64,000 bases of DNA from an uncultured delta proteobacterium (lineage in GTDB: Bacteria > Myxococcota > Myxococcia > Myxococcales > Myxococcaceae). This document shows, in pieces, positions 6,271 to 24,558 of the stretch (position 1 is the first letter of the stretch; each line of letters starts with the position of its first letter). The notes beneath the pieces were generated by a model that was not told the DNA's origin, did no database searches, and worked only from the letters and a program-made list of their open reading frames with translations. Position numbers and translations under genes: made by a program. The stretch is taken from assembly GCA_963796055.1 (NCBI GenBank), contig CAWCKH010000004.1:1888001-1952000 (forward strand). Reading direction: 5' to 3'.

Positions 6271-6843
6271 TCAGTAAGCGACGAGGGACGGCGACATCTC
6301 CGCTGGCTCACCGCGAGCGCGCGCCGCGGCGAGGTCCTCGAGCAGGGTTCCCCCGTCGCCAGGGGTGGGCCTGGAGAAGACGATCGCCCGGTACTCGCCC
6401 GGGGTGTCGACCGGCACCGCGAGAGTGACGCCCTGCGCGCCGCGGGTGCACGCCGGCGAACCGGGACAGCGGTGCACCACTCCCAGCGCGTTCCGGTACA
6501 CCCGCAGCTCGGCGCCCTCGAAGCGCAGGCGCCACAGGGTGTGAACCGGCGCGCTCCCGTCCGGCCGGAGGGTGCCCTCCACCGCCGCGGTGACCCGGAC
6601 CGGGAGGGGCCGGTCCGGGGCATGCCGCGTGGCGACCAGCGCTCCCACGGCGGCGACCACCGCGGCCAGGGCCAAGGCTCCCAGGCGACGGTTGCGCTGG
6701 CTGTGCTGGATGCGGACCCAGACCCCGCTCTCCCAGCCGGGCGTGGGGGTGTTGCGCCGCCGGTCCTGCGGGCCGTGTCCGGAGAGATGGGCCACCGCCT
6801 CGCGAGGCGACGGTGCTTCCGGTGCGACCACCCCCGCCGTCAC
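6271..6843 (-). CDS. Hypothetical single-TM protein (anti-sigma-like architecture); start uncertain
   Basis: [11 protein letters not shown], basic patch, one TM helix, then a predicted extracytoplasmic beta-rich domain with a C-x4-C pair. Confidence 0.55.
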
Positions 6844-6961
6844 GGTGTGGTGTCGGGCAGCGGACCGTCGTCTTCAGGTTGGCCCGGGACGTCGCCGGCT
6901 CCAATCGGCGGCCATCCCGGAGGGCGCGCGCAGCCCCGCGACTCTGCGCAGCGTCCGGGGG

Positions 6962-7009
6962 GCGACCGGCCGCCCTAGAGATCTCGGGCGGCCGGTCGCG
7001 CCGTTTTTT
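6962..7009 (+). terminator. Intrinsic terminator-like hairpin
   Basis: 14-bp perfect stem GCGACCGGCCGCCC / GGGCGGCCGGTCGC, 10-nt loop, followed by GCCGTTTTTT. Confidence 0.6.
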
Positions 7010-7048
7010 CGCTGCACGCCGCCGTCGGCACGGACATTGTGCCCGGTC

Positions 7049-8065
7049 ATGGAACAGCGACCGCTGGGGAAGTCTGGGCTGAACGTCTCCCGCATGGGCC
7101 TCGGCTGCATGGGGATGTCGGAGTTCTACGGACCGGCTGACGAGACCGAGTCCCGCGCCACCCTGGAGCTGGCAGTGGATCGAGGCGTCAGCTTCGTCGA
7201 CACCGCCGACTTCTACGGCGCGGGCAAGAACGAGGAGCTGCTCTCGGACATCCTGCGTCGGAGGCGGCAGGAGATCGTCCTCGCCACCAAGTTCGGGATC
7301 GTCCGGGATCCGGCCGCGCCGAACGACGCCACGCGCCGGAAGCTCAACGGCAAGCCGGACTACGTCCGGAGCGCCTGCGAGGCGAGCCTGCGCCGGCTGA
7401 AGGTCGAGGTGATCGACCTCTACTACCTGCACCGGGTGGACCCCTCGACGCCCATCGAGGAGACGGTGGGGGCCATGGCCCAGCTGGTGAAGGAGGGGAA
7501 GGTCCGGGCGCTGGGGCTGTCCGAGGCGCCGGCGGACGTCATCCGGCGTGCGGCCGCGGTGCACCCCATCGCCGCCCTGCAGAGCGAGTACTCGCTGTGG
7601 ACCCGCGACCCCGAGGACGGACCACTCCAGGCCTGCCGCGCGCTCGGCATCACCCTGGTGCCTTACAGCCCGCTGGGCCGCGGCTTCCTCACCGGGCAGA
7701 TCCGCACTCCTGCGGACTTCGGCGAGGACGACTTCCGGCGGAACAGCCCGCGCTTCCAGGGCGAGAACTTCGAGAAGAACCTGACCCTGGTGGAGAAGGT
7801 GGGCGCGCTGGCGCGGCAGAAGGGCTGCACGCCCGGACAGCTCGCGCTGGCGTGGGTGATGGCCCAGGGCGACGACGTGGTGCCGATTCCGGGGACCAAG
7901 CGGCGCAAGTACCTCGAGGAGAACCTGGGCGCGCTCGAGGTCCGGCTCACCGCGGGGGACCTGTCTGGCATCGAGGCGGTGTTCCCCAGGAGCGCCGTGT
8001 CGGGTGGCCGGTACGCCCCGGGCACGGTGGGTACTCAGCCCCTGGCGCAGCCACGGCCAACCTGA
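7049..8065 (+). CDS. Aldo/keto reductase (AKR13-like)
   Basis: [47 protein letters not shown] 7049. Confidence 0.95.
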
Positions 8066-8143
8066 GGCAGCTGCCAGCCATGCCTTGACCGCGCGGCCCC
8101 GGTGGCGTCGAGTTCGCGCTTCCGAGACACAGAGGAGGGTGCC

Positions 8144-8524
8144 GTGCTCGCCGATGCTCCGATGACGACGATTCTCCCGGTGGTGGATCTGGCCCGCGCC
8201 CGCGCGTTCTACGAGCAGAAGCTGGGGCTGAGCCGCGGCCGGGCCAAGCCCGATGGGAAGTACGAATACCCGGTGGGAAGCGGCGCGCTGGCGCTCTTCC
8301 AGCGCGGTGCCCCCACCCGGGCGGACCACACCGCGGTGAGCTTCGCGGTGCGCGACATCGGCGCGGCCATTCGCGAGCTCGAGTCCCGCGGGGTGGTGTT
8401 CCACGACTACGACCTGCCCGGTCTGAAGACGGTGGAGCACGTGTGCGTGCTCGGCTCGGAGAAGGCGGCGTGGTTCAGCGATCCCGAGGGCAACATCCTC
8501 TGCCTGCACGAGGACCTGGCCTGA
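8144..8524 (+). CDS. VOC/glyoxalase family protein
   Basis: [35 protein letters not shown] before GTG 8144. Confidence 0.88.
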
Positions 8525-9316
8525 ATGTCCGACGAGAACTGGGTGCTGACCACCCCGGCGCCTCCCGGCGTCCGTGAGGCGTACGGGCTGGCGCCCTCCC
8601 AGCACCTCTGGATCCGCCGGCCGCCGGGGAGCGGGCGGCTCCGGACCCTGGTGATGATCCACGGCGGATACTGGCGCGCGGCCTACGACGCAGCGCACGT
8701 GGGTCATCTCTGCGCCGACCTGGCGCGGCGCGGCTGGGCGACGGTGGCGCTCGAGTACCGCCGCATCGGGGAGCCGGGCGGAGCCTGGCCGGGGACGCTG
8801 GCCGACGTGAGCGCGGCCCTCGAGGCGCTGCCCGGGCTGGCCTCGAAGCATGGCCTGGATCCCGCCCGCTCCGTGTGGATGGGCCACTCCGCGGGCGGGC
8901 ACCTGGCGCTCTGGGCGGTGACGCGATCCAGCGCGCCCGGGTCGCTGAAGCGGCCGTCGTGGCGTCCGCGGCGGGTGGTCGGGCTCGCGCCGGTGTCGGA
9001 CCTGGTCGAGGCGGACACGCTGGCGCTGAGCGGGCACGTGACCCTCGAGCTGCTCGGTGGCACTGCCCGCGAGCAGCCCGCCCGCTACGCCGACGGCTCG
9101 CCCGCGGCGCACCTTCCGCTCGGGGTGCCGGTGGTGGTCGTCCACGGGACCAAGGACAACGTGGTCCCCCTGGCGATGAACCGGAGCTTCGTCGAGCGGG
9201 CGCGGAAGGCCGGGGACGACATCCGGCTGGTGATGCCGGAAGATGCGGACCACTTCGACGTCATCGACCCCACCTCGAAGGCGTGGGGGCAGGTGCTCGA
9301 GGCGCTCGGCCCCTAG
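8525..9316 (+). CDS. Alpha/beta hydrolase (HSL-like; candidate arylformamidase)
   Basis: HGGYW oxyanion motif, GHSAGG nucleophile, HGTKD and DHF triad residues. Confidence 0.85.
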
Positions 9317-9669: not shown

Positions 9670-9734
9670 CGCCCGAGATGGAAAAGCCGCACGGCGCATC
9701 GTGCAGGGCCCCCTGAAGACCAGCACCGAGACGC

Positions 9735-10472
9735 TCACAGTCCCCGGATGAACCCACCGTCCACGGCGATGGCCTGCCCGGTCACGTACCCGGCCTGCTC
9801 CGAGGCCAGGAAGGCCGCCACCGCGCCCAGCTCCTCGGGTCGTCCGAGCCGCCGGGCGGGGATGTGCGCGGCGAGCGTCTCCTCCGGGATGCCCAGCTCG
9901 GCGATGCGGTCGGTGGACGTGTAGCCCGGGAGCAGCGCGTTCACCGTCACCCCATCCTCGGCCACCTCGGGCGCCAGCGATTTCACCAGCCCCAGGAGGC
10001 CGGCGCGCAGGCCGCTGGACACCGTCAGCTCCGGGATGGGCTCCTTGGCCGCGGTCGAGGTGATGAGCAGCACGCGCCCCCACCGACGCTCCTGCATGGC
10101 GGGCAGCGCCGCGCGGATGGCGTCCACTGCGCTCATCCACAGGGACTGGAAGCCCACCTGCCACATCTCCTCGGTGATGTCGGCGAACCGCCCCTTCGGG
10201 GGCCCCCCGGTGTTGGTCACCAGGATGTCCAGACCGCCCAGCCGCTTGGTCGCAGTCTCCACCAGGGTGATCGCCGCGCCCGGGACGCGGAGGTCGCAGG
10301 GCAGCCCCGCCTGTGCGCCCAGCTCGCGCGCGGCGGCCTCGACCCGCGGCTTGTTCCGCGCGCAGATGGCCACCCGCGCCCCCTCCGCCACCAGCGCCGC
10401 GGCCACCGCCCGCCCGAGCCCCGAGGAGCCCCCGAGCACCAGTGCCCGTCGATCACGCAGTCCCAGGTCCAT
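9735..10472 (-). CDS. SDR-family oxidoreductase with atypical active site
   Basis: GGSSGLG, LDILVTNTGGP, GRPEE, YVTGQAIAVDGG; S-x3-R in place of YxxxK; ATGA overlap with kmo stop. Confidence 0.9.
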   Translation of the reverse strand: MDLGLRDRRALVLGGSSGLGRAVAAALVAEGARVAICARNKPRVEAAARELGAQAGLPCDLRVPGAAITLVETATKRLGGLDILVTNTGGPPKGRFADITEEMWQVGFQSLWMSAVDAIRAALPAMQERRWGRVLLITSTAAKEPIPELTVSSGLRAGLLGLVKSLAPEVAEDGVTVNALLPGYTSTDRIAELGIPEETLAAHIPARRLGRPEELGAVAAFLASEQAGYVTGQAIAVDGGFIRGL

Positions 10473-11839
10473 CAGAGCCTCTCGCGCAGGAAGGGAGTGA
10501 GCCGCGCGGCGACCAGCGCCCGTGCCCGCCCCAGGTCGACCTCGGCCGGCGAGGCCACGCCCTCGGCCAGCTCGGACACGATGCCCGAAGCGATACGACC
10601 GGCGTCGTAGGCCACCCGGTAGGGCGTCCGACTGAAGGTCACCATCGCGTAGCGGGAGACGAACTCGCCGGGCAGCTCGGCCAGGAGCCGCTTCTCGATG
10701 GCCTTCTCCAGCCGGAAGCGCGGGTCGGCGGTGCTGGCGCGCATCTCGACGAAGTTCTCCACCGCCATGTCGGCGATGGCGTCGGCGTTGGGCCTTCGCA
10801 GCCGCTCGAACCGGGCGAAGACCTCGCCCCGCGCGGCGCCCTCGGCCTCCAGCTCGTCCAGCACCACGCAGTCCTCGAAGCCGCAGTTCATGCCCTGGCC
10901 GAAGAAAGGGACGATGGCGTGGGCTGCGTCTCCGAGCAGCAGGGCTGTGTGGCCGGCGTGCCACGCCGAACACTTGACGGTGACCATCGACCCGGTCGGA
11001 TTGCCGGCGAACTGGGCCTCCAGGTCCGTGAGCATCGGCTCGATGTCCGCGAAGTACTCCCGGAAGAACGCCCGAACCGCCCCCGGAGCCTCCAGGGTGG
11101 CGAAGCTCGGGGAGCCCTCGAAGGCGAGGAACAGGGTGCAGGTGAAGCTCCCGTCCTCGTTGGGGAGGGCGATGAGCATGAAGTCGCCACGCGGCCAGAT
11201 GTGCAGCGCGTTCCGCTCCAGCCGCCACCCGCCTTCCGCGGCGGCGGGCAGGGTGAGCTCCTTGTAGCCGTGGTCGAGCAGCGTCTCGGTCGAGGTGCCG
11301 CCGCGGGCCTCCACCACTGCGCGGCGCACCGCCGAGCCCGCCCCGTCGGTGCCGTACACCACCGCGCCCTCGACGTGCTGGGTGTGCCCGCCGTCGACCT
11401 CGACCGTGAGCTCGCGGCGCGCGGGGTCGAGCGCCAGCACCCGCCGCCGGAACGACAGGCGCACCCGGCCGGTCTGCTCGGCGGCATCGAGCAGCATCCG
11501 GTTGAGCAGCCCGCGGGAGATGGAGTGGATGCACTGGCTGTCGTCCTTCCCGTACGCCTGGAAGGTGAGGCCCCCGTCGAGGCCATGGATCATCCGGCCC
11601 GGCATGGGGATGGCGTGGGCGAGCGCATCCTGCTCCAGACCGACATGGGCGAGGGCGTGGAGCCCGCGAACGCTGATTGCCAGATTGATGCTCCGGCCGG
11701 CGGAGATCTGCTCGCGCCGCATGTCCGGCCGCCGCTCGAAGAGCTCCACCGCCTTCCCCCGCCGGGCGAGGAAGAGCGCCAGGAGCGAGCCGACCAGGCC
11801 CGCACCGGCCAGGACCGTCCGCTCACCCCCCCTGGACAT
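10472..11839 (-). CDS. kmo: Kynurenine 3-monooxygenase
   Basis: GAGLVG, GRSINLAIS.RG, HGYKELT, NALHIWPRG, GDAAHAIVPFFGQGMNCGFED; cluster context. Confidence 0.93.
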   Translation of the reverse strand: MSRGGERTVLAGAGLVGSLLALFLARRGKAVELFERRPDMRREQISAGRSINLAISVRGLHALAHVGLEQDALAHAIPMPGRMIHGLDGGLTFQAYGKDDSQCIHSISRGLLNRMLLDAAEQTGRVRLSFRRRVLALDPARRELTVEVDGGHTQHVEGAVVYGTDGAGSAVRRAVVEARGGTSTETLLDHGYKELTLPAAAEGGWRLERNALHIWPRGDFMLIALPNEDGSFTCTLFLAFEGSPSFATLEAPGAVRAFFREYFADIEPMLTDLEAQFAGNPTGSMVTVKCSAWHAGHTALLLGDAAHAIVPFFGQGMNCGFEDCVVLDELEAEGAARGEVFARFERLRRPNADAIADMAVENFVEMRASTADPRFRLEKAIEKRLLAELPGEFVSRYAMVTFSRTPYRVAYDAGRIASGIVSELAEGVASPAEVDLGRARALVAARLTPFLRERL

Positions 11840-13091
11840 GGCCCCGGAGCACCTCGGCAAAGCGCACCACGTCGGCGAAGCCCGTGTAGAAGGGCGCGGG
11901 CGCGGCGCGGAGGATGTCCGGGGCGCGGAAGTCGCAGACCACTCCCGCCACCGCCAGGCGCTCCACCAGTCCGCGGGGGTCGTGGCCGATGCGCAGGGAC
12001 AGCTGCGCCCCGCGCTGGGCCGGGTCGTCAGGGGTGATGATCTCCACTCCCGGCATCCCCCGCACCAGCTGGTCCATGAGGCCGGTGAGCCGCTCGGACT
12101 TGCGCCCGAGCGCGGTCATCCCCACCGCGTCGAACAGCTCCATCGACGCCCGGAGCGCCGCCATGGAGAGGATCGGCGGATTCGACAGCTGCCATCCCTC
12201 GGCGCCCGGCATCCCCTGGAACCGCGGCCCCATCTCGAACCGGGTGGCCTCGTCGTGCCCCCACCAGCCCTCGAAGCGGGGCAGGTCCCGGCCGTCGTGG
12301 TGCCGCGCATGGACGAACACTCCACCGAGCGCGCCCGGTCCCCCGTTGAGGTACTTGTACGAGCACCACACGGCGAAGTCCGGTCCGTCGTCGTGCAGAT
12401 GGAAGACCAGGTTGCCCGCGCCGTGCGCGAGGTCGAAGCCGACCGTCGCCCCCACTGCGTGCCCCGCGCGGGTGACGGCCCCGACGTCGAAGGCCTGCCC
12501 GGTGAGGTAGTTCACGTTGCCGATCAGCACCAGCGCCAGCCGCTCGCCTTCCCGGGCGATGGCCTGGAGCAGATCCTCGGGCCGGAGCACGTCCTCTCCG
12601 GCCCGCGGCGCGAGCGGTACCAGCGCCTCTGCCGGATCGAATCCGTGGAAGCGGACCTGGCTGGCGAGCGCGTACCGGTCGGAGGGAAAGGCGCTGCCCT
12701 CGTGGAGGATGCGGTGACGCCCGGCGGTGGGCCGGTAGAAGGACACCAGCAGCAGATGCAGGTTGACGGTGAGGGTGTTCATCACCACCACCTCGTCGGG
12801 CTGGGCCCCGACGAGGCGCGCGGTGGGCGCGGTGAGGAAGCGGTGGTACGGAAGCCAGGGGGAGTCGCCTTCCAGGTGTCCCTCGACCCCGCGCCGGGCC
12901 CAGTCGTCCAGCACCTCCTCCACCCGTGCCCGCGCCGTCCGGGGCTGCAACCCGAGCGAGTTCCCGGTCAGGTACACCAGCGGCGCACCGTCCTGCCCTC
13001 TCGGGAGCAGGAAGGCGTCCCGCATCGGGCCCAGCGCATCACGTGCGTCGTGGTCCTCGGCGAGCCGCCGGCCTTCCTCGATGCTCAGCAT
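11823..13091 (-). CDS. kynU: Kynureninase
   Basis: YLTGNSLGLQP, MNTLTVNLHLL, DLAHGAGN, DFAVWCSYKYLNGGPG, GWWGH. Confidence 0.95.
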   Translation of the reverse strand: MLSIEEGRRLAEDHDARDALGPMRDAFLLPRGQDGAPLVYLTGNSLGLQPRTARARVEEVLDDWARRGVEGHLEGDSPWLPYHRFLTAPTARLVGAQPDEVVVMNTLTVNLHLLLVSFYRPTAGRHRILHEGSAFPSDRYALASQVRFHGFDPAEALVPLAPRAGEDVLRPEDLLQAIAREGERLALVLIGNVNYLTGQAFDVGAVTRAGHAVGATVGFDLAHGAGNLVFHLHDDGPDFAVWCSYKYLNGGPGALGGVFVHARHHDGRDLPRFEGWWGHDEATRFEMGPRFQGMPGAEGWQLSNPPILSMAALRASMELFDAVGMTALGRKSERLTGLMDQLVRGMPGVEIITPDDPAQRGAQLSLRIGHDPRGLVERLAVAGVVCDFRAPDILRAAPAPFYTGFADVVRFAEVLRGHVQGG

Positions 13092-14086
13092 GGCCGGCCC
13101 AGCCAGCGGAGCGCGTTTTCCCCCAGGAGCCGCGCCCGGGGGTTGGCGAGCTCGGGAACGGAGCGGATCAGCGCCCCCGGCTCGGGCTCGCCGAGCGGGA
13201 AGGGGTAGTCGCTCCCCAGCATCACCCGGTCCTCGCCGAAGAGCTTCACGATGAGCCGGAGCATGTCCGCATCGTGCACCAGGCTGTCCACCCAGAACCG
13301 CCCCAGGTAGGCCCGCGGGGGGACCGGGTTGTCCACCGCCACCAGATCGGGCCGGCAGTCGAACCCGTGCTGGATGCGACCCAGCGTCCCGGGAAAGGCG
13401 CCGCCGCCGTGGGCGAAGGCCACCCGGAGCGTGGGGAGCCGCTCCAGCACCCCGCCGAAGATGAGCGAGCAAATGGCCAGCGAGACCTCCGCGGGCATCC
13501 CCACCAGCCAGGGAAGCCAGTACTTCCGCATCCGCGCCTCGCCCATCATGTCCCAGGGATGGACGAAGACCGCGGCGCCCAGCTCGGCGGCGGCGACGAA
13601 CACCTCGAAGAGCGCCGGGTCGCTCAGGTTCCACTCGTTGACGTGGCTGCCGATCTGCACCCCGGCCAGGCCGAGGGACTTCACGCAGCGCTCCAGCTCG
13701 CGCACCGCCAGCGCGGGGGCCTGCATCGGCAAGGTCCCCAGACCCACGAAGCGCGCGGGCGCGCCGGCCACCACCGAGGCGAGGTGGTCGTTGAGGAACC
13801 GCGCCACCTCGGCGCCGTCCTCCGGCCTGGCCCAGTACGAGAACATCACCGGCACCGTCGAGAGCACCTGCACGTCCACCCCGGCGAGGTCGCAGTCGGC
13901 CAGCCGCGCGGCGGGCGCCCAGAGGTTCTCCTCCACCTCACGGAAGGGCTGTCCGTCGTCCCTCACCATCCGCGCGCGACAGGGCCCGGTGTGCTCGAGG
14001 CCGACGAAGCCGCCGTAGCCGAAGCGCTCCTTCCAGCGGGGCAGCTCGGGCGGAAGCAGGTGGGTGTGAACGTCGACGACCGGCAT
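13085..14086 (-). CDS. 2-amino-3-carboxymuconate-6-semialdehyde decarboxylase (ACMSD)
   Basis: DVHTH, VQVLSTVPVMFSYWA, FVHPWDM, YWLPWLVGMPAE, AHGGG, GSDYPFPLGE. Confidence 0.92.
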   Translation of the reverse strand: MPVVDVHTHLLPPELPRWKERFGYGGFVGLEHTGPCRARMVRDDGQPFREVEENLWAPAARLADCDLAGVDVQVLSTVPVMFSYWARPEDGAEVARFLNDHLASVVAGAPARFVGLGTLPMQAPALAVRELERCVKSLGLAGVQIGSHVNEWNLSDPALFEVFVAAAELGAAVFVHPWDMMGEARMRKYWLPWLVGMPAEVSLAICSLIFGGVLERLPTLRVAFAHGGGAFPGTLGRIQHGFDCRPDLVAVDNPVPPRAYLGRFWVDSLVHDADMLRLIVKLFGEDRVMLGSDYPFPLGEPEPGALIRSVPELANPRARLLGENALRWLGRPC

Positions 14087-14100
14087 TCGGCGTTTCGGTT

Positions 14101-14613
14101 TCAGGCGCGGGTGGCGCGCGTCCCGCACTTGCTGCAAGTTCTGGCCTTCTCGTCGCCGTAGAAGTGGTCGAACACCGGGGGCAGCTGCCGGACGATGTCG
14201 GTCAGGTGGATCGACTCTCGGTAGAGCTCGTTCCCGCATTTCTCGCAGACCCAGAGGAACGAGTCCTTCTCGTGCGGCAGCCGGCGGCGCTCGAGCACCA
14301 GCCCGATGGTGTTCGGAGGCCGCTGGGGCGAGTGGGGGACGTTGGGCGGAAGGAGGAAGATCTCCCCCTCCCGGATGGGAATGACTTCCCGCTGGCCGTC
14401 GACCAGGACGTGGAGGGCGATGTCCCCCTCGAGCTGGTAGAAGAACTCCTCGCCCTCGTTGACGTGGAAGTCGCGCCGCGCGTTCGGACCACCCACCACG
14501 GTGACCATGAACTCGCGGTCGGCCCAGATCTGCTGGTTGCCCACCGGGGGTTTCAGCAGATGCCGGTGCTCGTCGATCCACTTCTTGAAGTTGAGCGCTT
14601 GCAGCCTGGGCAT
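14101..14613 (-). CDS. nbaC: 3-hydroxyanthranilate 3,4-dioxygenase
   Basis: LKPPVGN, VGGPNARRDFH, EEFFYQ, PHSPQR, two CxxC motifs (CEKC, CSKC). Confidence 0.95.
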   Translation of the reverse strand: MPRLQALNFKKWIDEHRHLLKPPVGNQQIWADREFMVTVVGGPNARRDFHVNEGEEFFYQLEGDIALHVLVDGQREVIPIREGEIFLLPPNVPHSPQRPPNTIGLVLERRRLPHEKDSFLWVCEKCGNELYRESIHLTDIVRQLPPVFDHFYGDEKARTCSKCGTRATRA

Positions 14614-14615
14614 GT

Positions 14616-15035
14616 TCACTCCGGCATCGTGGCGATGCACTTCAGCTCGATGGCGATGGGCGTGGGGAGACGCGTCACCTCCACCGTGGTCCGGCACGGC
14701 TGGGCGTCCTTGAAGTACTCCGCCCAGAGCCGGTTGTAGACCGCGAAGTCGCTCTCCATGTCGGTGAGGAACACCGTCACGTCCACCAGGCGGTCCCAGG
14801 TGGTGCCTGCGTCCTCGAGGATGGCCCGAACGTTCTCGAACACGCTCTTGCACTGGATGGCGATGTCGTGATCGGTGACGTTGCCCTGCGCGTCCAGGGT
14901 CACCCCCGGGATGTCGTGGCTGCCGCGAACGCGCGGGCCGATCCCCGAGAGGAAGAGCAGATTGCCCACCCGGCGGGCATGGGGGAAGGCGCCCACCGGG
15001 GGCGCGGCGCGCTGCGAGGTCACTCGGTCCGGCAT
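14616..15035 (-). CDS. RidA-family protein, probable 2-aminomuconate deaminase
   Basis: PVGAFPHARRVGNLLFLSGIGPR, PCRTTVEV..LPTPIAIELK; cluster context. Confidence 0.85.
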   Translation of the reverse strand: MPDRVTSQRAAPPVGAFPHARRVGNLLFLSGIGPRVRGSHDIPGVTLDAQGNVTDHDIAIQCKSVFENVRAILEDAGTTWDRLVDVTVFLTDMESDFAVYNRLWAEYFKDAQPCRTTVEVTRLPTPIAIELKCIATMPE

Positions 15036-15041
15036 GGGCCT

Positions 15042-16493
15042 TCAACCTCCGTGCAGGTGGATGCAGATGTTCTGGGGCTCGGTGAAGAAGCGAAGCGCTT
15101 CCTGGCCGCCCTCGCGGCCCAGGCCCGAATCCTTCATCCCCCCGAAGGGGGTGCGCAGGTCGCGGAGCATCCAGGTGTTCACCCAGACGATGCCGCTCTG
15201 CAGCCCGGCGGCGAACCGGTGGGCGCGGGTCAGGTCGGCTGTCCACACCGAGGCGGCGAGGCCGTAGCGAACTCCGTTGGCGGCCTGGAGAACCTCCTCC
15301 TCGGAGTCGAACGGCATCAGGGCCGCCACCGGGCCGAAGATCTCCTCCTGGTTGGACCGGCACCCGGGGTCGAGCCCCTCGACCAGGGTGGGCTCCACGA
15401 ACCAGCCCTCGCGGCAGCGGCCACCGACCTCGGCCCGCCTGCCCCCGGTGAGGAACCGGCCGCCCTCCTCGCGGGCCAGAGCGAGGTAGCCGAGCACCTT
15501 GTCCAGGTGGGCCCGGCTGACCAGCGCCCCCTGCTCGGTCTCGGGCAGGAGCGGATCGCCGAGCTTGAGGGCCCGGGTGCGCTCCACCAGGGCGTCGCGC
15601 ACCCGGCCGTAGACGCTCCGCTCCACGAAGATGCGCGGACAGCAGAGGCAGATCTCACCCTGGTTGGAGAAGGACGAGCGCACGGTGGTGGCCACCGCCG
15701 ATTCCAGATCCGCGTCGGCGAAGATGACCACCGGGTTCTTTCCCCCCATCTCCAGCGAGAGCTTCTTGAACTGCGGTGCGGCGGTGCGGGCGATCTCCGC
15801 GCCGGTGCGTGTGCTGCCGGTGAAGGAGATGGCCTTCACCTCCGGATGGCGCGATAGGGCGTCGCCCACCTTGGGGCCCAGCCCCTGCACGATGTTCAGC
15901 ACCCCCGGCGGCAGCCCGGCCTCGAGCGCGATGCGTCCGAGCCAGTGGGCGGTGATCGGCGTCACCTCGGACGGCTTGGCCACCACCGTGTTGCCCACCG
16001 CGAGAGCGGGCGCCACCTTCCAGGTCAAGAGGTACAGCGGGAGGTTCCAGGGCGAGATGGTGCCCACCACCCCCAGCGGATGCCGCAGCGTGTAATTCAG
16101 CGCGTGCGAATCCATGGGATGGCACTCGCTGGAGAGCTGGGTGGCGGCGTCGGCGAAGAACTCGAAGTTCAGGATGGCTCGGGGGATGTCGACCTCGGTG
16201 GCCACCGAGACGGGCTTCCCGCTGTCCACCGACTCGGCGCGGGCCAGCTCGAGCAGCGCCAGGCGCAGACCCTCGGCCACCTTGCGTAGCAGGCGGCTCC
16301 GGACCGGGGCCGGCGTGGCGCTCCAGGCCGGAAATGCGCGCCGGGCGGCCTCGACCGCCTGGGCCACGTCCAGGGCGTCCGAATCGGGCAAGGTTCCCAG
16401 CGGTCCGCCGGTGGCGGGCTCCCAGTTGGGGAGCGTCGCCCCGGAAACCGCCGGAACCTCGCGACCGTCGATGACGTTGAGGACGCCGTCCAT
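15042..16493 (-). CDS. Aldehyde dehydrogenase, probable 2-aminomuconate-semialdehyde dehydrogenase
   Basis: ISPWNLPLYLLTWK, FTGST, LEMGGKNP, NQGEICLC, EEIFGPV; GGAGG RBS before ATG 16493. Confidence 0.88.
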   Translation of the reverse strand: MDGVLNVIDGREVPAVSGATLPNWEPATGGPLGTLPDSDALDVAQAVEAARRAFPAWSATPAPVRSRLLRKVAEGLRLALLELARAESVDSGKPVSVATEVDIPRAILNFEFFADAATQLSSECHPMDSHALNYTLRHPLGVVGTISPWNLPLYLLTWKVAPALAVGNTVVAKPSEVTPITAHWLGRIALEAGLPPGVLNIVQGLGPKVGDALSRHPEVKAISFTGSTRTGAEIARTAAPQFKKLSLEMGGKNPVVIFADADLESAVATTVRSSFSNQGEICLCCPRIFVERSVYGRVRDALVERTRALKLGDPLLPETEQGALVSRAHLDKVLGYLALAREEGGRFLTGGRRAEVGGRCREGWFVEPTLVEGLDPGCRSNQEEIFGPVAALMPFDSEEEVLQAANGVRYGLAASVWTADLTRAHRFAAGLQSGIVWVNTWMLRDLRTPFGGMKDSGLGREGGQEALRFFTEPQNICIHLHGG

Positions 16494-16569: not shown

Positions 16570-17340
16570 ATGGACATCGAGCGCCTGGCGGGTCATCTGG
16601 ACGACGCGCGGCGGCACGGCCGGGAGGTGGAGCGGCTGACGCTCGAGGCCCCGGACCTGGACCTCGCCCAGGCCTACCAGGTGATGGACGCGGGCATCGC
16701 CCTGCGCATGGCCCGCGGCGAGCGGGTCATCGGGATGAAGATGGGGCTCACCTCGGAGGCCAAGCGCCGCCAGATGTCGCTCGATGCGCCGATCTACGGC
16801 GTGCTGACCGACGCCATGGTGGTCCAGGGCACCTTCCATCTCCGGGGCACCTTGCATCCGAAGATCGAGCCCGAGGTCGCCTTCCGCTTCGCCCGCGGCC
16901 TCGCCGGGACGCCGGACCGGTCGGCTGTGCTCTCGGCGTGCACCGCGGTGGGCCCGGCCTTGGAGATCCTCGACTCGCGCTACCGCGACTTCAAGTACTT
17001 CAGCCTCCCGGACGTGGTGGCGGACAATGCGTCGTCCTCGCACGTCGTGCTCCCCGAGCGCTGGGTGGAGATCGAGGGTCGGGACACCTCGCGGGTGGAG
17101 CTGGTGATGTTCGTCGACGGGACGCCCCGACAGCGGGCGACGGGGGCGGCCATCTCCGGGGACCCGGTGCTGTCGGTGGTGCAGCTGTGCGCGCTGCTGA
17201 CCGCACGGGGCCGCTCGGTCCCGGCCGGGAGCGTGGTGCTGGCCGGGGCGGCCACCGTCGCCGAGCCGCTCGTGGCCGGGATGGAGGTCCGGCTGGACGC
17301 GGGGTGGCTGGGGAGCACGTCGGTGCGGGTCGAGCCGTGA
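16570..17340 (+). CDS. 4-oxalocrotonate decarboxylase / 2-keto-4-pentenoate hydratase family
   Basis: KMGLTSEAK, HPKIEPEVAF, EILDSRY, DVVADNASS. Confidence 0.88.
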   Translation: MDIERLAGHLDDARRHGREVERLTLEAPDLDLAQAYQVMDAGIALRMARGERVIGMKMGLTSEAKRRQMSLDAPIYGVLTDAMVVQGTFHLRGTLHPKIEPEVAFRFARGLAGTPDRSAVLSACTAVGPALEILDSRYRDFKYFSLPDVVADNASSSHVVLPERWVEIEGRDTSRVELVMFVDGTPRQRATGAAISGDPVLSVVQLCALLTARGRSVPAGSVVLAGAATVAEPLVAGMEVRLDAGWLGSTSVRVEP

Positions 17341-17723
17341 CCCGCCGCCGCCGCACCCTGGCGGTGGTCTCGGCCACGGTGGGCACCGCGCTGCTCGCCG
17401 GGTCGTTCGTGCTCATGTCCCGTGCGGAGGCGCCGCCCTGGGCGATGCTCGCCTGGGGTGCGGTGGCCCTGGTGGCCGTGGCGGCGTTCCTCGCCCGCTT
17501 CCGGGTCGATCGGGTGCACGAGGCGCTGTTCCTCGCCTCGCTGGTCGCGCTCGGGCAGACCTTGGCGCTGCACGCGGTGCTGATGGTCCTGCTCGGAGCG
17601 CGGCTTCCCCCGGCGCCGACGGTGCTCCGGCACCTGGTTGCCTTCGGGTTGCTGGACGCGCTCACCCTGGTGGCGGCGACGCTCGCCGGGCACTGGTTCC
17701 CGCAGCGGCCGCCGAGCCGCTAG
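17337..17723 (+). CDS. Hypothetical membrane protein (about 4 TM)
   Basis: GTGA overlap with upstream gene; four hydrophobic segments. Confidence 0.6.
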   Translation: MTRRRRTLAVVSATVGTALLAGSFVLMSRAEAPPWAMLAWGAVALVAVAAFLARFRVDRVHEALFLASLVALGQTLALHAVLMVLLGARLPPAPTVLRHLVAFGLLDALTLVAATLAGHWFPQRPPSR

Positions 17724-18634
17724 GAGCCGCGCGGCTGCTGCTGGGCCGCATCGAGGGTGAGCAGATCCTGCTCGAGCTGGCGGCGGCCGGTGACGTCGCT
17801 GAAGAAGACGTACAGCCCGCGCGCCGAGGGGACCGCGGTCACGCCGTACCAGCTCCCGCCGTTTGGCGCCCGGTCCTCGACGACGCGCAGGTACCCATCG
17901 GCGAGCGCCTCCTCGAAGGCCCGATGGAACGCCGTCCCCTGCAGCTCGGGGAACACCTCCCACAGCTCACGGCCGATGACCTCGGAGCGGGTGCGCTCCA
18001 GCATCCGCTCGGCGGCGGGGTTCCAGTGGGTGATGCGCCACTCCCGGTCCAGACCGCAGCACCCCTCGGGATTGGCCCGGAGCCAGCGATCCAGATCGGC
18101 GCGGGCGATGAGGGCGGCGGTCTCGGCCTCGACCTGGGTGGTGATGTCCGCGACGTAGGAGAGGATCATCGGAGGCTGTCCGGGTCGCCCGCCGATGGCG
18201 ATCCGCGTCCACTCGCAATGGCGAATGTCACCGGACCGGGTCCGGTTCCGGTTGCGGTGCACGAGGTGCCGATCGTGACCGGAGCGCAGGCGGTCGAGGA
18301 CCGCATCGACGAAGGGAAGGTCCGACTCGTGGACCAGCTCGAGCCCGTCGATGTGGCTGCCGAGCACCTCCGCCGCGGTCCAGCCGAACAATCGCTCGGC
18401 GGCGCCGGCCCACAGCCGGATCGTCCCCGCCGTATCCGTCTCGATCACCGCGACCGGCAGCGCCTCGAGATGTTCGAGGAGCGGATTGCCCTCGGGGGAC
18501 ATCTGGCTGAGGCGCGCGGGGGCCATTGCTGATCGCGCGGGATAATCGGTGGGGGGGCTGTCATCGGCCTGGACCGAACTGCGGGCGGCGTCCGTATCGA
18601 ACATCTCAGAGCTTTTCGGCTTTCTCACGAACAT
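17720..18634 (-). CDS. Tandem PAS-domain protein with no output domain
   Basis: Two PAS folds (GTIRLWAGAAERLFGW; WRITHWNPAAERML...IGRELWEVFP), each ending DIT/DVT; start uncertain. Confidence 0.8.
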   Translation of the reverse strand: MFVRKPKSSEMFDTDAARSSVQADDSPPTDYPARSAMAPARLSQMSPEGNPLLEHLEALPVAVIETDTAGTIRLWAGAAERLFGWTAAEVLGSHIDGLELVHESDLPFVDAVLDRLRSGHDRHLVHRNRNRTRSGDIRHCEWTRIAIGGRPGQPPMILSYVADITTQVEAETAALIARADLDRWLRANPEGCCGLDREWRITHWNPAAERMLERTRSEVIGRELWEVFPELQGTAFHRAFEEALADGYLRVVEDRAPNGGSWYGVTAVPSARGLYVFFSDVTGRRQLEQDLLTLDAAQQQPRGS

Positions 18635-18646
18635 GGAAAACTCCAG

Positions 18647-19715
18647 CTAGAACGCTCGGAGGTACTGCACCGGGACGCGCCGCGCCTCGGGGCGCCCCAG
18701 CTCCTCGGCGGCGTGCAGGGCCCAGTACGGGTCCCGCAGCATCGCGCGGGCGAGCATGACGAGATTCTGCGTCCCCGGCGCGGACGATCCCGTCGGCCTG
18801 GGCGGGGGTGTTGATGAGCCCCACCGCCGCGGTGGGCACCCGGGCCTCGGCGCGAATGCGTCGTGCGAAGGGGACCTGGTAGCCGGGCACCGCCTCGATG
18901 CGCGCGTAGGGCACGAGGCCGCCCGAGCTGCAGTCGACGAGGTCCACGCCCTCGGCGCCGAGCCGCCGCGCCAGCTCCACGCTCTCGTCCAGCGTCCAGC
19001 CGCCTTCCACCCAGTCGGTGCACGACAGCCGCGCGAGCAGCGGCAGCCGCTCCGGCCATTCGGCGCGGACCGCCCGGGTGATCTCCAGCGCCAGGCGGGT
19101 CCGCTGCTCGAAGCCGCCTCCGTAGCCGTCCTCTCGCCGGTTGGACAGCGGAGAGAGGAACTCGTGCACCAGGTACCCGTGGGCGAAGTGCAGCTCGACC
19201 AGGCGGAAACCCGCGGCCAGCGACCGGCGGGCCGCCGCGGCGAATGCCCGGATCACCTCGCCGATGTCCTCGAGCGACATCGCCCGCGGCACGACCGTGC
19301 GCTCGGAGAAGGGAATCGCGCTGGGGGCGATCGGCTGCCACCCGCCTTCCTCTGGCGGCACACCGGTGCCACCCTCCCAGGGCACGCGGGTGCTCGCCTT
19401 GCGTCCGGCGTGGGCCAGCTGCACGCCGGGCACCGCGCCGTGCGCGTCGAGGAAGCGAACGATGCGCGAGAGCGGCTCGAGGTGAGCGTCCTTCCACAGC
19501 CCCAGGTCCGCGGCGGTGATGCGACCGCGCGCCTCGACCGCGGTGGCCTCGGCGACGACCAGGCCGGCCCCACCCACCGCACGCGACCCGAGGTGGACCA
19601 GGTGCCAGTCGTTGGCGAAGCCATCGTCCGCGCTGTACTCGCACATCGGCGAGACACCGACGCGGTTGGAGAGGGTGACGGAGCGGAGGGTCAGCGGCTC
19701 GAAGAGGTGGGCCAC
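18647..19715 (-). CDS. NADH:flavin oxidoreductase (old yellow enzyme, YqjM/NamA-like) with +1 frameshift at ~18765
   Basis: SPMCEYS, QLAHAGRKAS, HFAHGYLVHEFLSP, PGYQVPFA; removing one base restores DLVMLARAMLRDPYWALHAA...PVQYLRAF*. Confidence 0.9.
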
Positions 19716-19742
19716 CGCCAGGACGTAATCCCGGCGCTCGGC

Positions 19743-20705
19743 TCAGGCCACCCGGTCCGGGGCGGGCCTGCCCGAGAGGACCGCGTCGACGTTGTCCAGC
19801 GCCCGGAATCCCATCGCTTCCCGGGTCTCGATGGTCGCGCTGCCCATGTGTGGCAGGAGGAAGGTGTTCTCCAGCCCGCGGTAGCCGGGATGGAGCGCCG
19901 GCTCGCCCTGGAACACGTCCAGCCCGGCGGCCCCCACCTGACCCGAACGCAGGGCCGAGATCAGCGCCTCGTCGTCCACCAGGTCCCCCCGGGCGGTGTT
20001 CACCACGATGGCCCCGCGGGGAAGCAGCGCCAGCCGGTGCGCGTCGAGCAGATGCCGCGTCTCCGGCGTCGACGGCGCATGCAGCGAGAGCAGCTCGCTC
20101 AGCGGCAGCAGCTCCTCCACGGTGGGGTGGAAGACGGCGCCCTCCTCGCGCTCGGGCGGCAGCCGCCGCTGGTCGGTGTAGTGGATCTCCACCCCGAAGC
20201 CCCGGGCACGCCGGGCCATGGCCTGACCGATGCGACCCATCCCCACGATGCCCAGGCGCTTGCCGCTCAGCTGACGCCCCATGAGCTGCGTGGGCGCCCA
20301 CCCGGTCCAGCCGCCCGAGCGCAGCAACGCCTGTCCCTCGTACGCGCGCCGCGCCGCCCCGAGCAGCAGGAGCAGCGCGATCTCCGCGGTGGCGTCGGTC
20401 AGCACCTCGGGGGTGTTGGTCACCACCAGTCCCCGGGCCCGCGCCGTGTCCAGGTCGAGATGCTCGGTGCCTACCCCGAAGCTGGCCACGATGCGGATCC
20501 GCGCCGGGAGTCTCAGCAGGACGCCGGCGTTCATCCGGTCCGCCACGGTGCACACCACCGCGTCCACGTCCTGGCTCCGGGCGACGAGCTCGTCGGCGAC
20601 CAGGGGCCGGTCCTCGGGATTGGCGATCAGCCGGTAGTCGCGGGCCGCGCGGCGCTCGACCGCCTCGGGCAACCTCCGGGTGAAGAGGACCGCGTGCTCA
20701 GTCAT
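19743..20705 (-). CDS. D-2-hydroxyacid dehydrogenase (glyoxylate/hydroxypyruvate reductase-like)
   Basis: VTNTPEVLTDATAE, GMGRIG, NTARG, GLDVF..EP, LPHMGSAT. Confidence 0.92.
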   Translation of the reverse strand: MTEHAVLFTRRLPEAVERRAARDYRLIANPEDRPLVADELVARSQDVDAVVCTVADRMNAGVLLRLPARIRIVASFGVGTEHLDLDTARARGLVVTNTPEVLTDATAEIALLLLLGAARRAYEGQALLRSGGWTGWAPTQLMGRQLSGKRLGIVGMGRIGQAMARRARGFGVEIHYTDQRRLPPEREEGAVFHPTVEELLPLSELLSLHAPSTPETRHLLDAHRLALLPRGAIVVNTARGDLVDDEALISALRSGQVGAAGLDVFQGEPALHPGYRGLENTFLLPHMGSATIETREAMGFRALDNVDAVLSGRPAPDRVA

Positions 20706-21690
20706 TCACGTTCACGACCACCCGCCCGCGCACCTGTCCATCGACGATGCGCGGGGCGAACTCCACCAGCTTGGACATCGGCACCTCCTGGGTCACCTCG
20801 TCGAGGTGCAGCTTTCCCAGGTTGTCCACCAGCAGCTTCCAGGCGCGCGTCCGCTCCTCGGCCGGTGTCAGGTCCGAGTCGCAGCCGAGGAGCGCCACGT
20901 TGCGGAGGATGAAGGGGAACACGGTCCCCGGGAAGTCCGAGCCTCCGGCCAGCCCGCACGCGGCGACCGCGCCACGGTAGGCGGTCTGGCTGCAGAGGGT
21001 GACCAGCGTCTGCCCGCCCACCGTGTCCACGCCACCGCCCCACCGTTCGGAGGCCAGCGCCGGGCCCTTCTGGGCGAGCACGTCCCGGCCGATGATGTCC
21101 GTGGCGCCGAGCTTCCGGAGGTAGTCCGCCTCGGAGGTCCGGCCGGTCGAGGCGACCACCTTCCTCCCCAGCGCCGCGAGGAGCGCCACGGCGATCGAGC
21201 CCACGCCGCCTGCGGCGCCGGTCACCACGAACTCGCGGTCGGATGCCAGCGTGCCGTGGTCCTGCAGCGCCAGCACGCAGAGGGCGGCGGTGAAGCCCGC
21301 GGTGCCGATGGCCATCGAGGTGCGCGCGTCGAGCCCCCGCGGAATCGGCAGCACCATCGCTTCCTTCACCCGGGCGCGCTGGGAGAAGCCGCCCCACCAG
21401 CTCACGCCCAGGCCGTTCCCCGTCACCAGCACCGGGTCGCCGGGGCGGAACCTCGCCCCGGTGCTCGAGCGCACCCGGCCGGCGAGGTCGATGCCGGGCA
21501 CCATCGGCCACTTGCGGATGACCTTGCCGCGACCGGTGAGCGCCAGGCCGTCCTTGTAGTTGAGCGAGCTGTAGGCCACGTCGATGGTGACCTCGCCGGG
21601 CGGCAGCGCCGCCTCCTCGAGCGCCGCGCGCTTGACCTGCGTGCGCCCGTCCGCCTGCTCGGCGACCAGAGCCGTGAAGTTATCTGCCAT
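20698..21690 (-). CDS. YhdH/AcuI-family MDR oxidoreductase
   Basis: YSSLNYKDGLA, PGIDLAG, GTAGFTAAL, TGAAGGVGS, PFILRNV, RGRVVV. Confidence 0.9.
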   Translation of the reverse strand: MADNFTALVAEQADGRTQVKRAALEEAALPPGEVTIDVAYSSLNYKDGLALTGRGKVIRKWPMVPGIDLAGRVRSSTGARFRPGDPVLVTGNGLGVSWWGGFSQRARVKEAMVLPIPRGLDARTSMAIGTAGFTAALCVLALQDHGTLASDREFVVTGAAGGVGSIAVALLAALGRKVVASTGRTSEADYLRKLGATDIIGRDVLAQKGPALASERWGGGVDTVGGQTLVTLCSQTAYRGAVAACGLAGGSDFPGTVFPFILRNVALLGCDSDLTPAEERTRAWKLLVDNLGKLHLDEVTQEVPMSKLVEFAPRIVDGQVRGRVVVNVND

Positions 21691-21909
21691 AGCGCCGGTG
21701 ACCATCGATCCGGCAGAGACGAAACTCCAGTCGGAGTCCGGAAAAACTTGCTCTCTCCCGCTCGACCCCCGGGCTGCTCGCCCTCGCAGGAAGGGCCCGC
21801 GGAGCTTGGCCCGCCGTTCGCAAGGCGGACGACTCAGGGCGGCGTGGGGGTCGTGGGGCGTGGCGAGACGTGGACGGTCGCTTGCAGAGCGGTTGCTGAC
21901 CTCAGTTGG

Positions 21910-23488: not shown

Positions 23489-23538
23489 GGACTGCCGGGC
23501 AGCATATGCCGCCCCCGGGGTGGTATAGGCGTCGCGCC

Positions 23539-24558
23539 ATGACCGAACCGGCCTCCAGGCGCGGGCGCCCCACGCTCGTGAAGGAACCTCTGCCGCTCGA
23601 CCACAAGCTCCTGGTCCGCATGCACGACCTGATGGTCGAGTCCCGGGTACTCGAGGAGCGGTTGATCCAGATGTACCGCCAGGGCCACGGGTACTTCTGG
23701 ATCGGCGGCCCGGGGGAGGAGGCGTTCAACGTCGCCCTGGGCCTGCTGATGAAGAAGGGCCAGGGCCCGGCCCACGACTACCTGCACGCGCACTACCGCC
23801 AGAGCGCCACCATGATGGCCCTGGGCGAGGACCCCATTGGCGCGCTCCGGCAGATGAAGAGCACCGCGAGCGATCCGTACTCGGGGGGCCGCAACTTCGC
23901 CGGCCACTTCAGCAGGCGCGAGTGGAACATCGTCCCGGTGTCGAGCCCGATCGAGGTGCAGTACGCGATGGCCCCTGGCACCGCGCTGGCCCAGAAGCGG
24001 CACGGGGGCGACGGCATCACCATCGTCACCGGCGGCGACGCCGGCACGGCCGAGGGCGACTTTGCCAGCTGCCTGGTGTGGAGCACCCGGCCGGGGAACG
24101 AGCTCCCGCTGCTGATCGTCGTCACCCACAACCAGTGGGGCATCTCCACCTCGGCGGCGACCCAGCAGGGCTGCAAGACCATCGCCGACCGCGGCAAGGC
24201 GTTCGGGATGCAGACCAAGACCATCGACGGGAACGACCCCATCGTCAGCTACCTCGAGCTGCAGAAGGCGATGGGCTACGTCCGGACGGAGCGGAGGCCG
24301 TACCTGCTCGAGGCCAACGTCTCGCGCCTCTATGGCCACTCCAGCGCCTCCGGGGCGAACTTCGTGACCGTGGAGCAGGACTGCATCGCCGAGTTTGAGA
24401 AGAAGCTCGAGGCCCACGGCATCCTCACCCGTGCGGAGATGGAGAAGGTCCGCGCGCGCTGGACCGAGGAGATCGCCGCCAAGGCCCGGCAGGTCCGCGA
24501 CGAGCCGCTCCCCGAGCCCTCCACCATCTGGAAGCACGTCTACGCGGAGGATCGCTGA
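23539..24558 (+). CDS. 2-oxoacid dehydrogenase E1 alpha subunit
   Basis: TPP motif GDAGTAEGDF...HNQWGIS, RLYGHSS. Confidence 0.9.
   Translation: MTEPASRRGRPTLVKEPLPLDHKLLVRMHDLMVESRVLEERLIQMYRQGHGYFWIGGPGEEAFNVALGLLMKKGQGPAHDYLHAHYRQSATMMALGEDPIGALRQMKSTASDPYSGGRNFAGHFSRREWNIVPVSSPIEVQYAMAPGTALAQKRHGGDGITIVTGGDAGTAEGDFASCLVWSTRPGNELPLLIVVTHNQWGISTSAATQQGCKTIADRGKAFGMQTKTIDGNDPIVSYLELQKAMGYVRTERRPYLLEANVSRLYGHSSASGANFVTVEQDCIAEFEKKLEAHGILTRAEMEKVRARWTEEIAAKARQVRDEPLPEPSTIWKHVYAEDR

Follow-up and report, generated by a model that had tools for sequence, protein, structure and literature searches.

No part of the kynurenine pathway is less settled than the fate of tryptophan carbon beyond 2-aminomuconate, and it is here that we place, with graded confidence, an SDR (short-chain dehydrogenase/reductase) gene from a 64,000-nucleotide (nt) stretch of DNA, "the window", of an uncultured member of the Myxococcaceae (assembly GCA_963796055.1, contig CAWCKH010000004.1, positions 1,888,001 to 1,952,000). 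Fungi and some bacteria use a deaminase after 2-aminomuconate, and we know of no gene for an enzyme that converts 2-oxohex-3-enedioate to 2-oxoadipate. The bacterial amn/nba, Burkholderia-type lower pathway consists of the deaminase, 4-oxalocrotonate decarboxylase, 2-oxopent-4-enoate hydratase, 4-hydroxy-2-oxovalerate aldolase and acylating acetaldehyde dehydrogenase. In animals, human ASPDH was described as the 2-aminomuconate reductase, with L-2-aminohex-3-enedioate as product, in a bioRxiv preprint of June 2026 (10.64898/2026.06.05.730449), and in the available part of that text the steps onward to 2-ketoadipate are stated as still unknown. An earlier reading of the locus, made from the letters alone and called here the initial annotation, had held that the animal reductive step has no firmly assigned gene; the preprint makes this outdated in part, while the route to 2-ketoadipate is still open there. 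An SDR syntenic with a fungal 3-hydroxyanthranilate cluster has also been described, reduction to 2-oxoadipate being left open in the accessible sections (PMC7842363), and one review, in its accessible portion, names an oxalocrotonate reductase activity and gives no gene. In the literature found on 2-aminomuconate and 2-oxoadipate reductases, available in part, no bacterial gene was assigned to the reduction of 2-aminomuconate to 2-oxoadipate, and among the pathway papers searched none on the kynurenine operon named Myxococcus or Bdellovibrio.

The window SDR ends an ALDH-RidA-HAO-ACMSD-kynU-kmo operon (gene products are given in full below) and belongs to a clade tied to these genes in two phyla. 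We consider it likely that it works somewhere in the lower kynurenine pathway. As to the reaction, we tentatively propose an NADPH-dependent reductase of 2-oxohex-3-enedioate (4-oxalocrotonate), a function that we hold to be possible rather than probable. The RidA-type deaminase would yield the 2-oxo-3-enoate 2-oxohex-3-enedioate, and the SDR would then perform an NADPH-dependent conjugate (C=C) reduction of it to 2-oxoadipate, giving a reductive branch beside, or in place of, the decarboxylase branch. To judge by the searched literature, neither the specific tie of this clade to tryptophan catabolism nor the function we propose has been described before; the SDR subgroup itself is structurally known.

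The linkage was followed in samples of 401 Myxococcota and 301 Bdellovibrionota genomes. Orthologues of at least 57% identity to the SDR occur in about 91 Myxococcota genomes, and 88 of the 171 genomes of the window's family have a match, one of these being a 48% paralogue. In each of the 29 short Myxococcota loci kmo lies directly upstream of the SDR. Of the 12 longer ones, 11 are linked to kynurenine genes, ten with the full operon and one (L125) with kynU-kmo-SDR at a contig end; the SDR of G081 is unlinked. In Bdellovibrionota, 47 of the 301 genomes carry an orthologue (49-67% identity), and it is the 3' gene of an ALDH-RidA-HAO(-ACMSD)(-kynU-kmo) series in 36 of the 40 loci fetched, two of the four exceptions being on short contigs or at contig ends. 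Three gene orders were found in this phylum: ALDH-RidA-HAO-ACMSD-kynU-kmo-SDR, as in the window; ALDH-RidA-HAO-ACMSD-SDR, where the opposite strand carries kmo, kynU and the decarboxylase; and ALDH-RidA-HAO-SDR. Since the SDR stands at the 3' end in all three, it follows the ALDH-RidA-HAO block and not kmo as such, and RidA accompanies it in the linked clusters. The genes which make 2-oxohex-3-enedioate are thus the ones to which the SDR is linked (52/58 clade members, 36/40 and 29/29 loci), as a reductase of this compound calls for.

In a maximum likelihood tree of 142 sequences, the linked SDRs form one clade of 58 rows (SH-aLRT 94) that spans Myxococcota and Bdellovibrionota and of which 52 are linked. 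It is nested within a clade of 66 rows (support 100), the other 8 rows being a sister clade, and none of the 74 remaining family members is linked, the sister clade and two rows of a second SDR (SDR', see below) being excluded from this count. HAO is present in about 90 of 91 SDR-positive Myxococcota genomes, and in 43 of 47 SDR-positive against 19 of 254 SDR-negative Bdellovibrionota genomes, counts in which independence is overstated as the genomes are related to one another. The initial annotation had asked whether this SDR clade co-occurs with ACMSD, ALDH and RidA, and such co-occurrence is seen in both phyla, with the genes in three different orders. The SDR tree departs from the species tree, the Myxococcaceae nesting among Bdellovibrionota and the window SDR standing apart from other Myxococcaceae; this suggests, in an unrooted tree, that the SDR gene or the operon may have been transferred between both predatory phyla.

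Two Bdellovibrionota genomes without an SDR orthologue, G448 and G513, have TDO-SDR'-ALDH-RidA-HAO operons, where TDO is tryptophan 2,3-dioxygenase and SDR' (P0002) is 33-36% identical to the window SDR, lies on a distant branch and has the same Ser/Arg site (SNTTR). After HAO, the G448 operon continues with ACMSD-KynB-kynU-kmo; that of G513, on a 6.4-kb contig, with an EamA transporter and then the contig end. No decarboxylase-like gene was found anywhere in these two genomes. Judged by its position in the tree, a distant SDR of the Ser/Arg type is recruited here independently to kynurenine clusters. The linked clade, tied to the pathway in two phyla and matched by this recruitment of a same-type SDR, is a well-defined candidate for the step from 2-oxohex-3-enedioate to 2-oxoadipate. 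The nine-gene arrangement (TDO, SDR', ALDH, RidA, HAO, ACMSD, KynB, kynU, kmo) occupies 5485-14222 of L240 on the minus strand and covers the way from tryptophan to 2-oxohex-3-enedioate; the shorter one (TDO, SDR', ALDH, RidA, HAO, EamA transporter) occupies 954-5292 of L242 on the plus strand.

In the window, the SDR gene is an uninterrupted frame of 245 codons, with a GC content of 0.76/0.54/0.93 at codon positions 1/2/3 in a window of 71% GC, and the six genes upstream lie on the same strand, packed tightly or overlapping. Translation and homology matches bear out the initial annotation in making the SDR the last gene of the operon, and PDB and TIGRFAM matches confirm the identities it gave to the six other genes. 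The ATGA overlap which it described between kmo and the SDR is not there: the stop TGA and the start ATG share one nucleotide (TGATG; coding strand CTC TGA TGG). Past the SDR stop, at a distance of 29 nt, comes a terminator-like hairpin with a T run behind it; it is a consensus match only, with one found against 0.1 expected in shuffles. The features are as follows.

9735..10472, minus strand: atypical SDR of 245 amino acids (aa), last operon gene (Pfam, alignments)
9687..9706, minus strand: terminator-like hairpin and T run, read from 9706 to 9687 (consensus match)
10472..11839, minus strand: kynurenine 3-monooxygenase (kmo), ATG at 11839, reading frame open to 11860 (best PDB match KMO 5fn0, 7.6e-106)
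11823..13091, minus strand: kynureninase (kynU) (TIGR01814, 403 bits, cut-off 246)
13085..14086, minus strand: ACMSD, the decarboxylase of 2-amino-3-carboxymuconate-6-semialdehyde (4igm, 2.3e-131)
14101..14613, minus strand: 3-hydroxyanthranilate 3,4-dioxygenase (HAO) (TIGR03037, 265 bits, cut-off 146)
14616..15035, minus strand: RidA-family protein, probably 2-aminomuconate deaminase (best PDB match 6izh, a 2-aminomuconate deaminase, 5.1e-22)
15042..16493, minus strand: 2-aminomuconate-6-semialdehyde dehydrogenase (ALDH), alternative start 16577 (4u3w, 3.4e-142)
16570..17340, plus strand: 4-oxalocrotonate-decarboxylase-like gene of the FAH family, start approximate (TIGR03218, 195 bits, below the cut-off of 350)

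The last of these, absent from the initial annotation, is divergent from ALDH, and its protein matches PDB 8ih6_F (4-oxalocrotonate decarboxylase) at 1.4e-46, NahK at 1.9e-40 and hydratases at 1e-25 or weaker. Human ACMSD (4igm/2wm1, 2.3e-131) is a much closer match to the window ACMSD than is the Pseudomonas fluorescens enzyme (2hbv, 6.8e-70).

The SDR protein matches Pfam adh_short_C2 (PF13561) at 4.5e-53 (180.7 bits, cut-off 27) and PF00106 at 141.6 bits (cut-off 26.6), which places it in the SDR superfamily, and all its Pfam matches are SDR-type NAD(P)-binding domains (adh_short_C2, adh_short, SDR, KR, NAD_binding_10). It is not a classical SDR with an Asn-Ser-Tyr-Lys tetrad. In an alignment with a classical SDR paralogue of the same genome, the tetrad positions are taken by L111, S139, S152 and R156; the catalytic Ser is retained as S139, while L111 faces the catalytic Asn, S152 the Tyr and R156 the Lys. 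LTVSSGLRAG does lie at the YxxxK position, as had been noticed initially, with Ser-x3-Arg replacing Tyr-x3-Lys. With the catalytic Tyr, Lys and Asn all replaced, the SDR might be catalytically inactive or purely regulatory; we regard this as extremely improbable, as the protein keeps its cofactor motifs, the Gly-rich G14-x3-G18-x-G20 and N87-T-G89-G90-P91, in which G18, G20, N87, G89, G90 and P91 do not vary across the 142 family sequences. In the same set, S139 and R156 are found in 142/142 members and Ser at the Tyr position in 141/142, and T187, the threonine of PGxxxT, is invariant or nearly so. Such conservation across 142 sequences points to selection on the active site, and the Ser/Ser/Arg site is, as read from this alignment, a family trait and not a lesion. 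Moreover, a relative (3lf2) was presumably crystallised with NADPH.

R39, after strand 2, is kept in the family alignment and, together with the NADPH complex that we take 3lf2 to be, makes NADPH the predicted cofactor. R189 is invariant across the 142 members and is Met in the classical paralogue. R156 and this invariant lid arginine would be suited to binding the enolate and the carboxylate of a 2-oxo acid, roles which, like the substrate and product, are predicted. The loss of Tyr and Lys would argue against ordinary carbonyl/alcohol chemistry.

The best solved relatives of the window SDR are 1o5i (5.7e-53), 5va8 (4e-46), 2z1n (5.8e-46) and 3lf1 (2.3e-29), and in the alignments all four have S-x3-R at the YxxxK position, so that the window SDR falls into a Ser/Ser/Arg subgroup which we take to be 'BKR_like_SDR_like' of CDD. 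Its solved members include TM1169 (1o5i), APE0912 (2z1n), Q9HYA2 of P. aeruginosa (3lf1/3lf2) and Burkholderia SDRs (5va8, 5idx, 5vps), and the subgroup of Q9HYA2 has reportedly been described as atypical before. Like the window SDR, the solved Ser/Ser(Thr)/Arg members have the same length, the Gly-rich and NxGGP motifs and similarity over the full length; unlike them, the window SDR lies in a distinct clade (58 of the 142 sampled sequences) tied to kynurenine clusters. Our literature search on the subgroup returned two passing citations only. The neighbourhoods of 32 more distant family members were heterogeneous and showed no family-wide theme; cupins turned up here and there, besides one RidA, two ACMSD-family decarboxylases and one aminotransferase. 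A precedent for the proposed chemistry may lie in BacG (YwfH) of the bacilysin system, reportedly an SDR that reduces a C=C bond conjugated to a 2-oxo acid, its partners being BacB, a cupin, and BacF, an aminotransferase. BacG (3u49, 4.1e-30) shares the SDR scaffold with the window SDR, but the similarity is generic to SDRs, and the two would be analogous in chemistry and gene order rather than orthologues. Perhaps, the Ser/Ser/Arg SDRs are ene-reductases for 2-oxo-3-enoic acids at large, with the linked clade as the missing 2-oxohex-3-enedioate reductase, a generalization which we advance with more reserve than the reaction itself. If it holds, this would be the first function for a subgroup with several crystal structures and an unexplained active site.

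The animal enzyme offers the nearest comparison for the step. Both ASPDH and the SDR concern an NAD(P)H-dependent reduction near 2-aminomuconate, shown or proposed, and both were found via their association with HAO and ACMSD, ASPDH by co-evolution. ASPDH differs in its aspartate dehydrogenase fold, unrelated to SDRs, in acting on an enamine and, in the available part of the preprint, in having a product other than 2-oxoadipate. The SDR could reduce 2-aminomuconate itself as a bacterial analogue of this reductase, all the more as NAD(P)H-dependent 2-aminomuconate reduction exists in animals (10.64898/2026.06.05.730449, as far as the text is available) and the SDR is encoded in the linked clusters with the enzymes making 2-aminomuconate. 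Nevertheless we find this very improbable. According to the same partial source, ASPDH and a RidA-type deaminase are mutually exclusive in eukaryotes, whereas in the window deaminase and SDR share an operon, and the Pfam scan of the SDR protein gave SDR-type matches only, with no ASPDH domain or aspartate dehydrogenase homology. In fact, since the deaminase is constantly present, the SDR is better placed after deamination than on 2-aminomuconate.

The amn/nba route and the window have orthologues of the deaminase and the decarboxylase in common, but the rest of that route was not recovered in the window's genome, a 5.5-Mb Myxococcota genome of 98.5% completeness. For 4-hydroxy-2-oxovalerate aldolase (DmpG, TIGR03217) the best score there is 75 bits against a cut-off of 286, and neither acylating acetaldehyde dehydrogenase (DmpF, TIGR03215) nor an HpaI-type aldolase (PF03328) had any match. 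The genome has no clustered hydratase and has the SDR instead; a second FAH-family gene (G000:C4:86957-87712) is isolated, and none of the dmpE, dmpH and HpaH models matches it above cut-off (108-122 bits). No DmpG turned up in any of the roughly 91 Myxococcota genomes that bear the SDR, and the 18 Myxococcota genomes having both HAO and DmpG, including G143 where DmpG, decarboxylase and HAO are adjacent, are all without the SDR. A clean complementarity of SDR and aldolase was considered and rejected: it holds in the Myxococcota sample and fails in Bdellovibrionota, where DmpG occurs in 1 of 62 HAO-positive genomes regardless of the SDR, and that one genome is among the 43 bearing the SDR.

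A decarboxylase orthologue in 43 of 48 SDR-positive clusters raises another explanation, that the SDR acts after the decarboxylase, reducing the C5 compound 2-hydroxypenta-2,4-dienoate/2-oxopent-4-enoate to 2-oxopentanoate and replacing the hydratase/aldolase branch. The missing DmpG and DmpF in the window's genome agree with it, as does the distribution of FAH-family genes: no second one adjoins the decarboxylase in those 43 clusters, and tandem decarboxylase and hydratase pairs were seen only in clusters or genomes where the SDR is absent (L232, L236, L245; G418, G409, G535). Yet we judge this C5 reaction improbable as the main function. The SDR in G445 and G549, both of the orthologous clade, and SDR' in G448 and G513 occur in genomes that yielded no decarboxylase-like gene, so the SDR can do without the decarboxylase; conversely, clusters L139 and L247-L249 have the decarboxylase and neither SDR nor hydratase, and the isolated second FAH-family gene of the window's genome could itself be a hydratase. 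All four combinations exist, namely decarboxylase with SDR, decarboxylase alone, SDR alone (G445, G549, and SDR' in G448 and G513) and neither. Decarboxylase and SDR thus assort independently, a pattern easier to square with 2-oxohex-3-enedioate having two alternative exits than with a set sequence of decarboxylase and then SDR. Reduction of 2-oxohex-3-enedioate therefore stays our preferred reading, and the SDR might additionally accept the C5 2-oxo-enoate coming from the decarboxylase.

The initial annotation had taken the SDR to be the C=C or imine reductase leading to 2-oxoadipate. This is favoured by the conserved linkage and by the canonical continuation not being found in the window's genome; the specific reaction we still infer, and several findings weigh against it. 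The decarboxylase in most SDR-positive clusters would be a competitor for the same substrate. Sister genera have operons that are otherwise identical but lack the SDR: in genus g6, HAO is present in 7/7 genomes and the SDR in 0/7, and the same holds for most of family f5 and for single genomes of g3 and g25; in these genomes neither an SDR orthologue elsewhere nor the aldolase was found. G188, a 100% complete genome, has neither SDR nor decarboxylase, and 19 of the 62 HAO-positive Bdellovibrionota genomes lack both SDR and DmpG. Further down the expected route, 12 acyl-CoA dehydrogenase open reading frames (ORFs) scanned in the window's genome reach at best 326 bits against a cut-off of 470 for NF045552, the only glutaryl-CoA dehydrogenase model appearing in that scan. 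In addition, we know of no member of the Ser/Ser/Arg subgroup with an assigned substrate.

The sister clade counts on the same side. It consists of 8 rows, from Steroidobacterales and one Xanthobacteraceae, which are 59-64% identical to the window SDR and share the residues of the linked clade at most of its clade-specific positions. On Steroidobacterales contigs (L003-L008, L012), this SDR lies in a different, conserved cluster composed of an AhpD/CMD-like protein, a small cupin, the SDR, a branched-chain aminotransferase (NF009897, 343 bits, over cut-off), a TonB receptor, a cyclase-family protein that is not an arylformamidase equivalog and an SNF-type Na+ symporter, with a divergent Amidohydro_3 gene alongside. 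SDR and aminotransferase genes overlap by 4 nt and are translationally coupled. The two sister-clade genomes tested have HAO-x-kynU-kmo and no true ACMSD, so the substrate of the sister SDR cannot be derived from 2-aminomuconate there. Coupling to this aminotransferase is also a point for the C5 reaction; branched-chain aminotransferases take aliphatic monocarboxylic 2-oxo acids. The series cupin-SDR-aminotransferase would match the gene logic of BacB-BacG-BacF. The small cupin was tried as a relative of HAO and rejected, the pairwise similarity being weak and generic to cupins (2e-07 over 75 residues); its best PDB matches are small cupins including KdgF, and it is KdgF/BacB-like.

Such findings lend some weight to an accessory or damage-control role outside the carbon flow, in which the SDR would deal, for example, with reactive by-products of 3-hydroxykynurenine or 3-hydroxyanthranilate, or with a general 2-oxo acid. 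The SDR is dispensable in otherwise identical operons, its sister clade occurs in genomes having only HAO-kynU-kmo, and the neighbourhoods of the wider family are heterogeneous. This role seems to us unlikely all the same: in linked clusters the SDR keeps to the 3' end of ALDH-RidA-HAO(-ACMSD) also where kmo and kynU are encoded on the opposite strand, clusters of this kind recruited a further SDR of the same type, and no dedicated next-step enzyme was found in them. We looked for 2-oxoadipate or glutaryl-CoA genes in L227, L231, L196, L202 and L215, which comprise clusters without decarboxylase (genes flanking the SDR) and three other Bdellovibrionota clusters (genes downstream of it), and found none; the genes near the SDR are unrelated and mostly convergent. 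That no further dedicated genes flank the SDR suggests a product of common metabolism, such as 2-oxoadipate would be. If reduction of 2-oxohex-3-enedioate is indeed its function, then predatory Myxococcota and Bdellovibrionota would get from tryptophan to 2-oxoadipate by deaminase plus reductase, a third way alongside decarboxylase and aldolase in bacteria and ASPDH in animals.

A few minor observations concern the surroundings of these clusters. In two Bdellovibrionota clusters, a fusion of Asparaginase_II and a KynB-type cyclase (525-533 aa) follows kynU (L236, 1187-2764, minus strand; L245, 12814-14415, plus strand); GMP synthase lies beside both and IMP dehydrogenase beside L245 only. In the window's genome, two cyclase-family genes could be KynB. 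Convergent with the SDR are an aldo/keto reductase, a glyoxalase-fold protein and an alpha/beta hydrolase (6572-9316, plus strand), the last of which recurs (45-50% identical) beside the operon in many Myxococcaceae, whether the SDR is present or not. This hydrolase (8525-9316) was considered as a eukaryote-type kynurenine formamidase and dismissed, its PDB matches being carboxylesterases which give no support; further matches to TAL effectors look like composition artefacts.

On the other side, past the decarboxylase, 17720-21705 (minus strand) encodes a PAS-domain protein, an Old Yellow Enzyme (OYE)-type flavin oxidoreductase, a D-2-hydroxyacid dehydrogenase and an acrylyl-CoA reductase family protein (TIGR02823, 401 bits, over cut-off). 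The OYE-type protein is NamA-like (337 bits, below cut-off) and is another possible ene-reductase. Further along, 23506-25613 (plus strand) carries the E1 alpha and beta subunits of a 2-oxo-acid dehydrogenase, which score 174 and 187 bits, below the cut-offs of the pyruvate dehydrogenase models.

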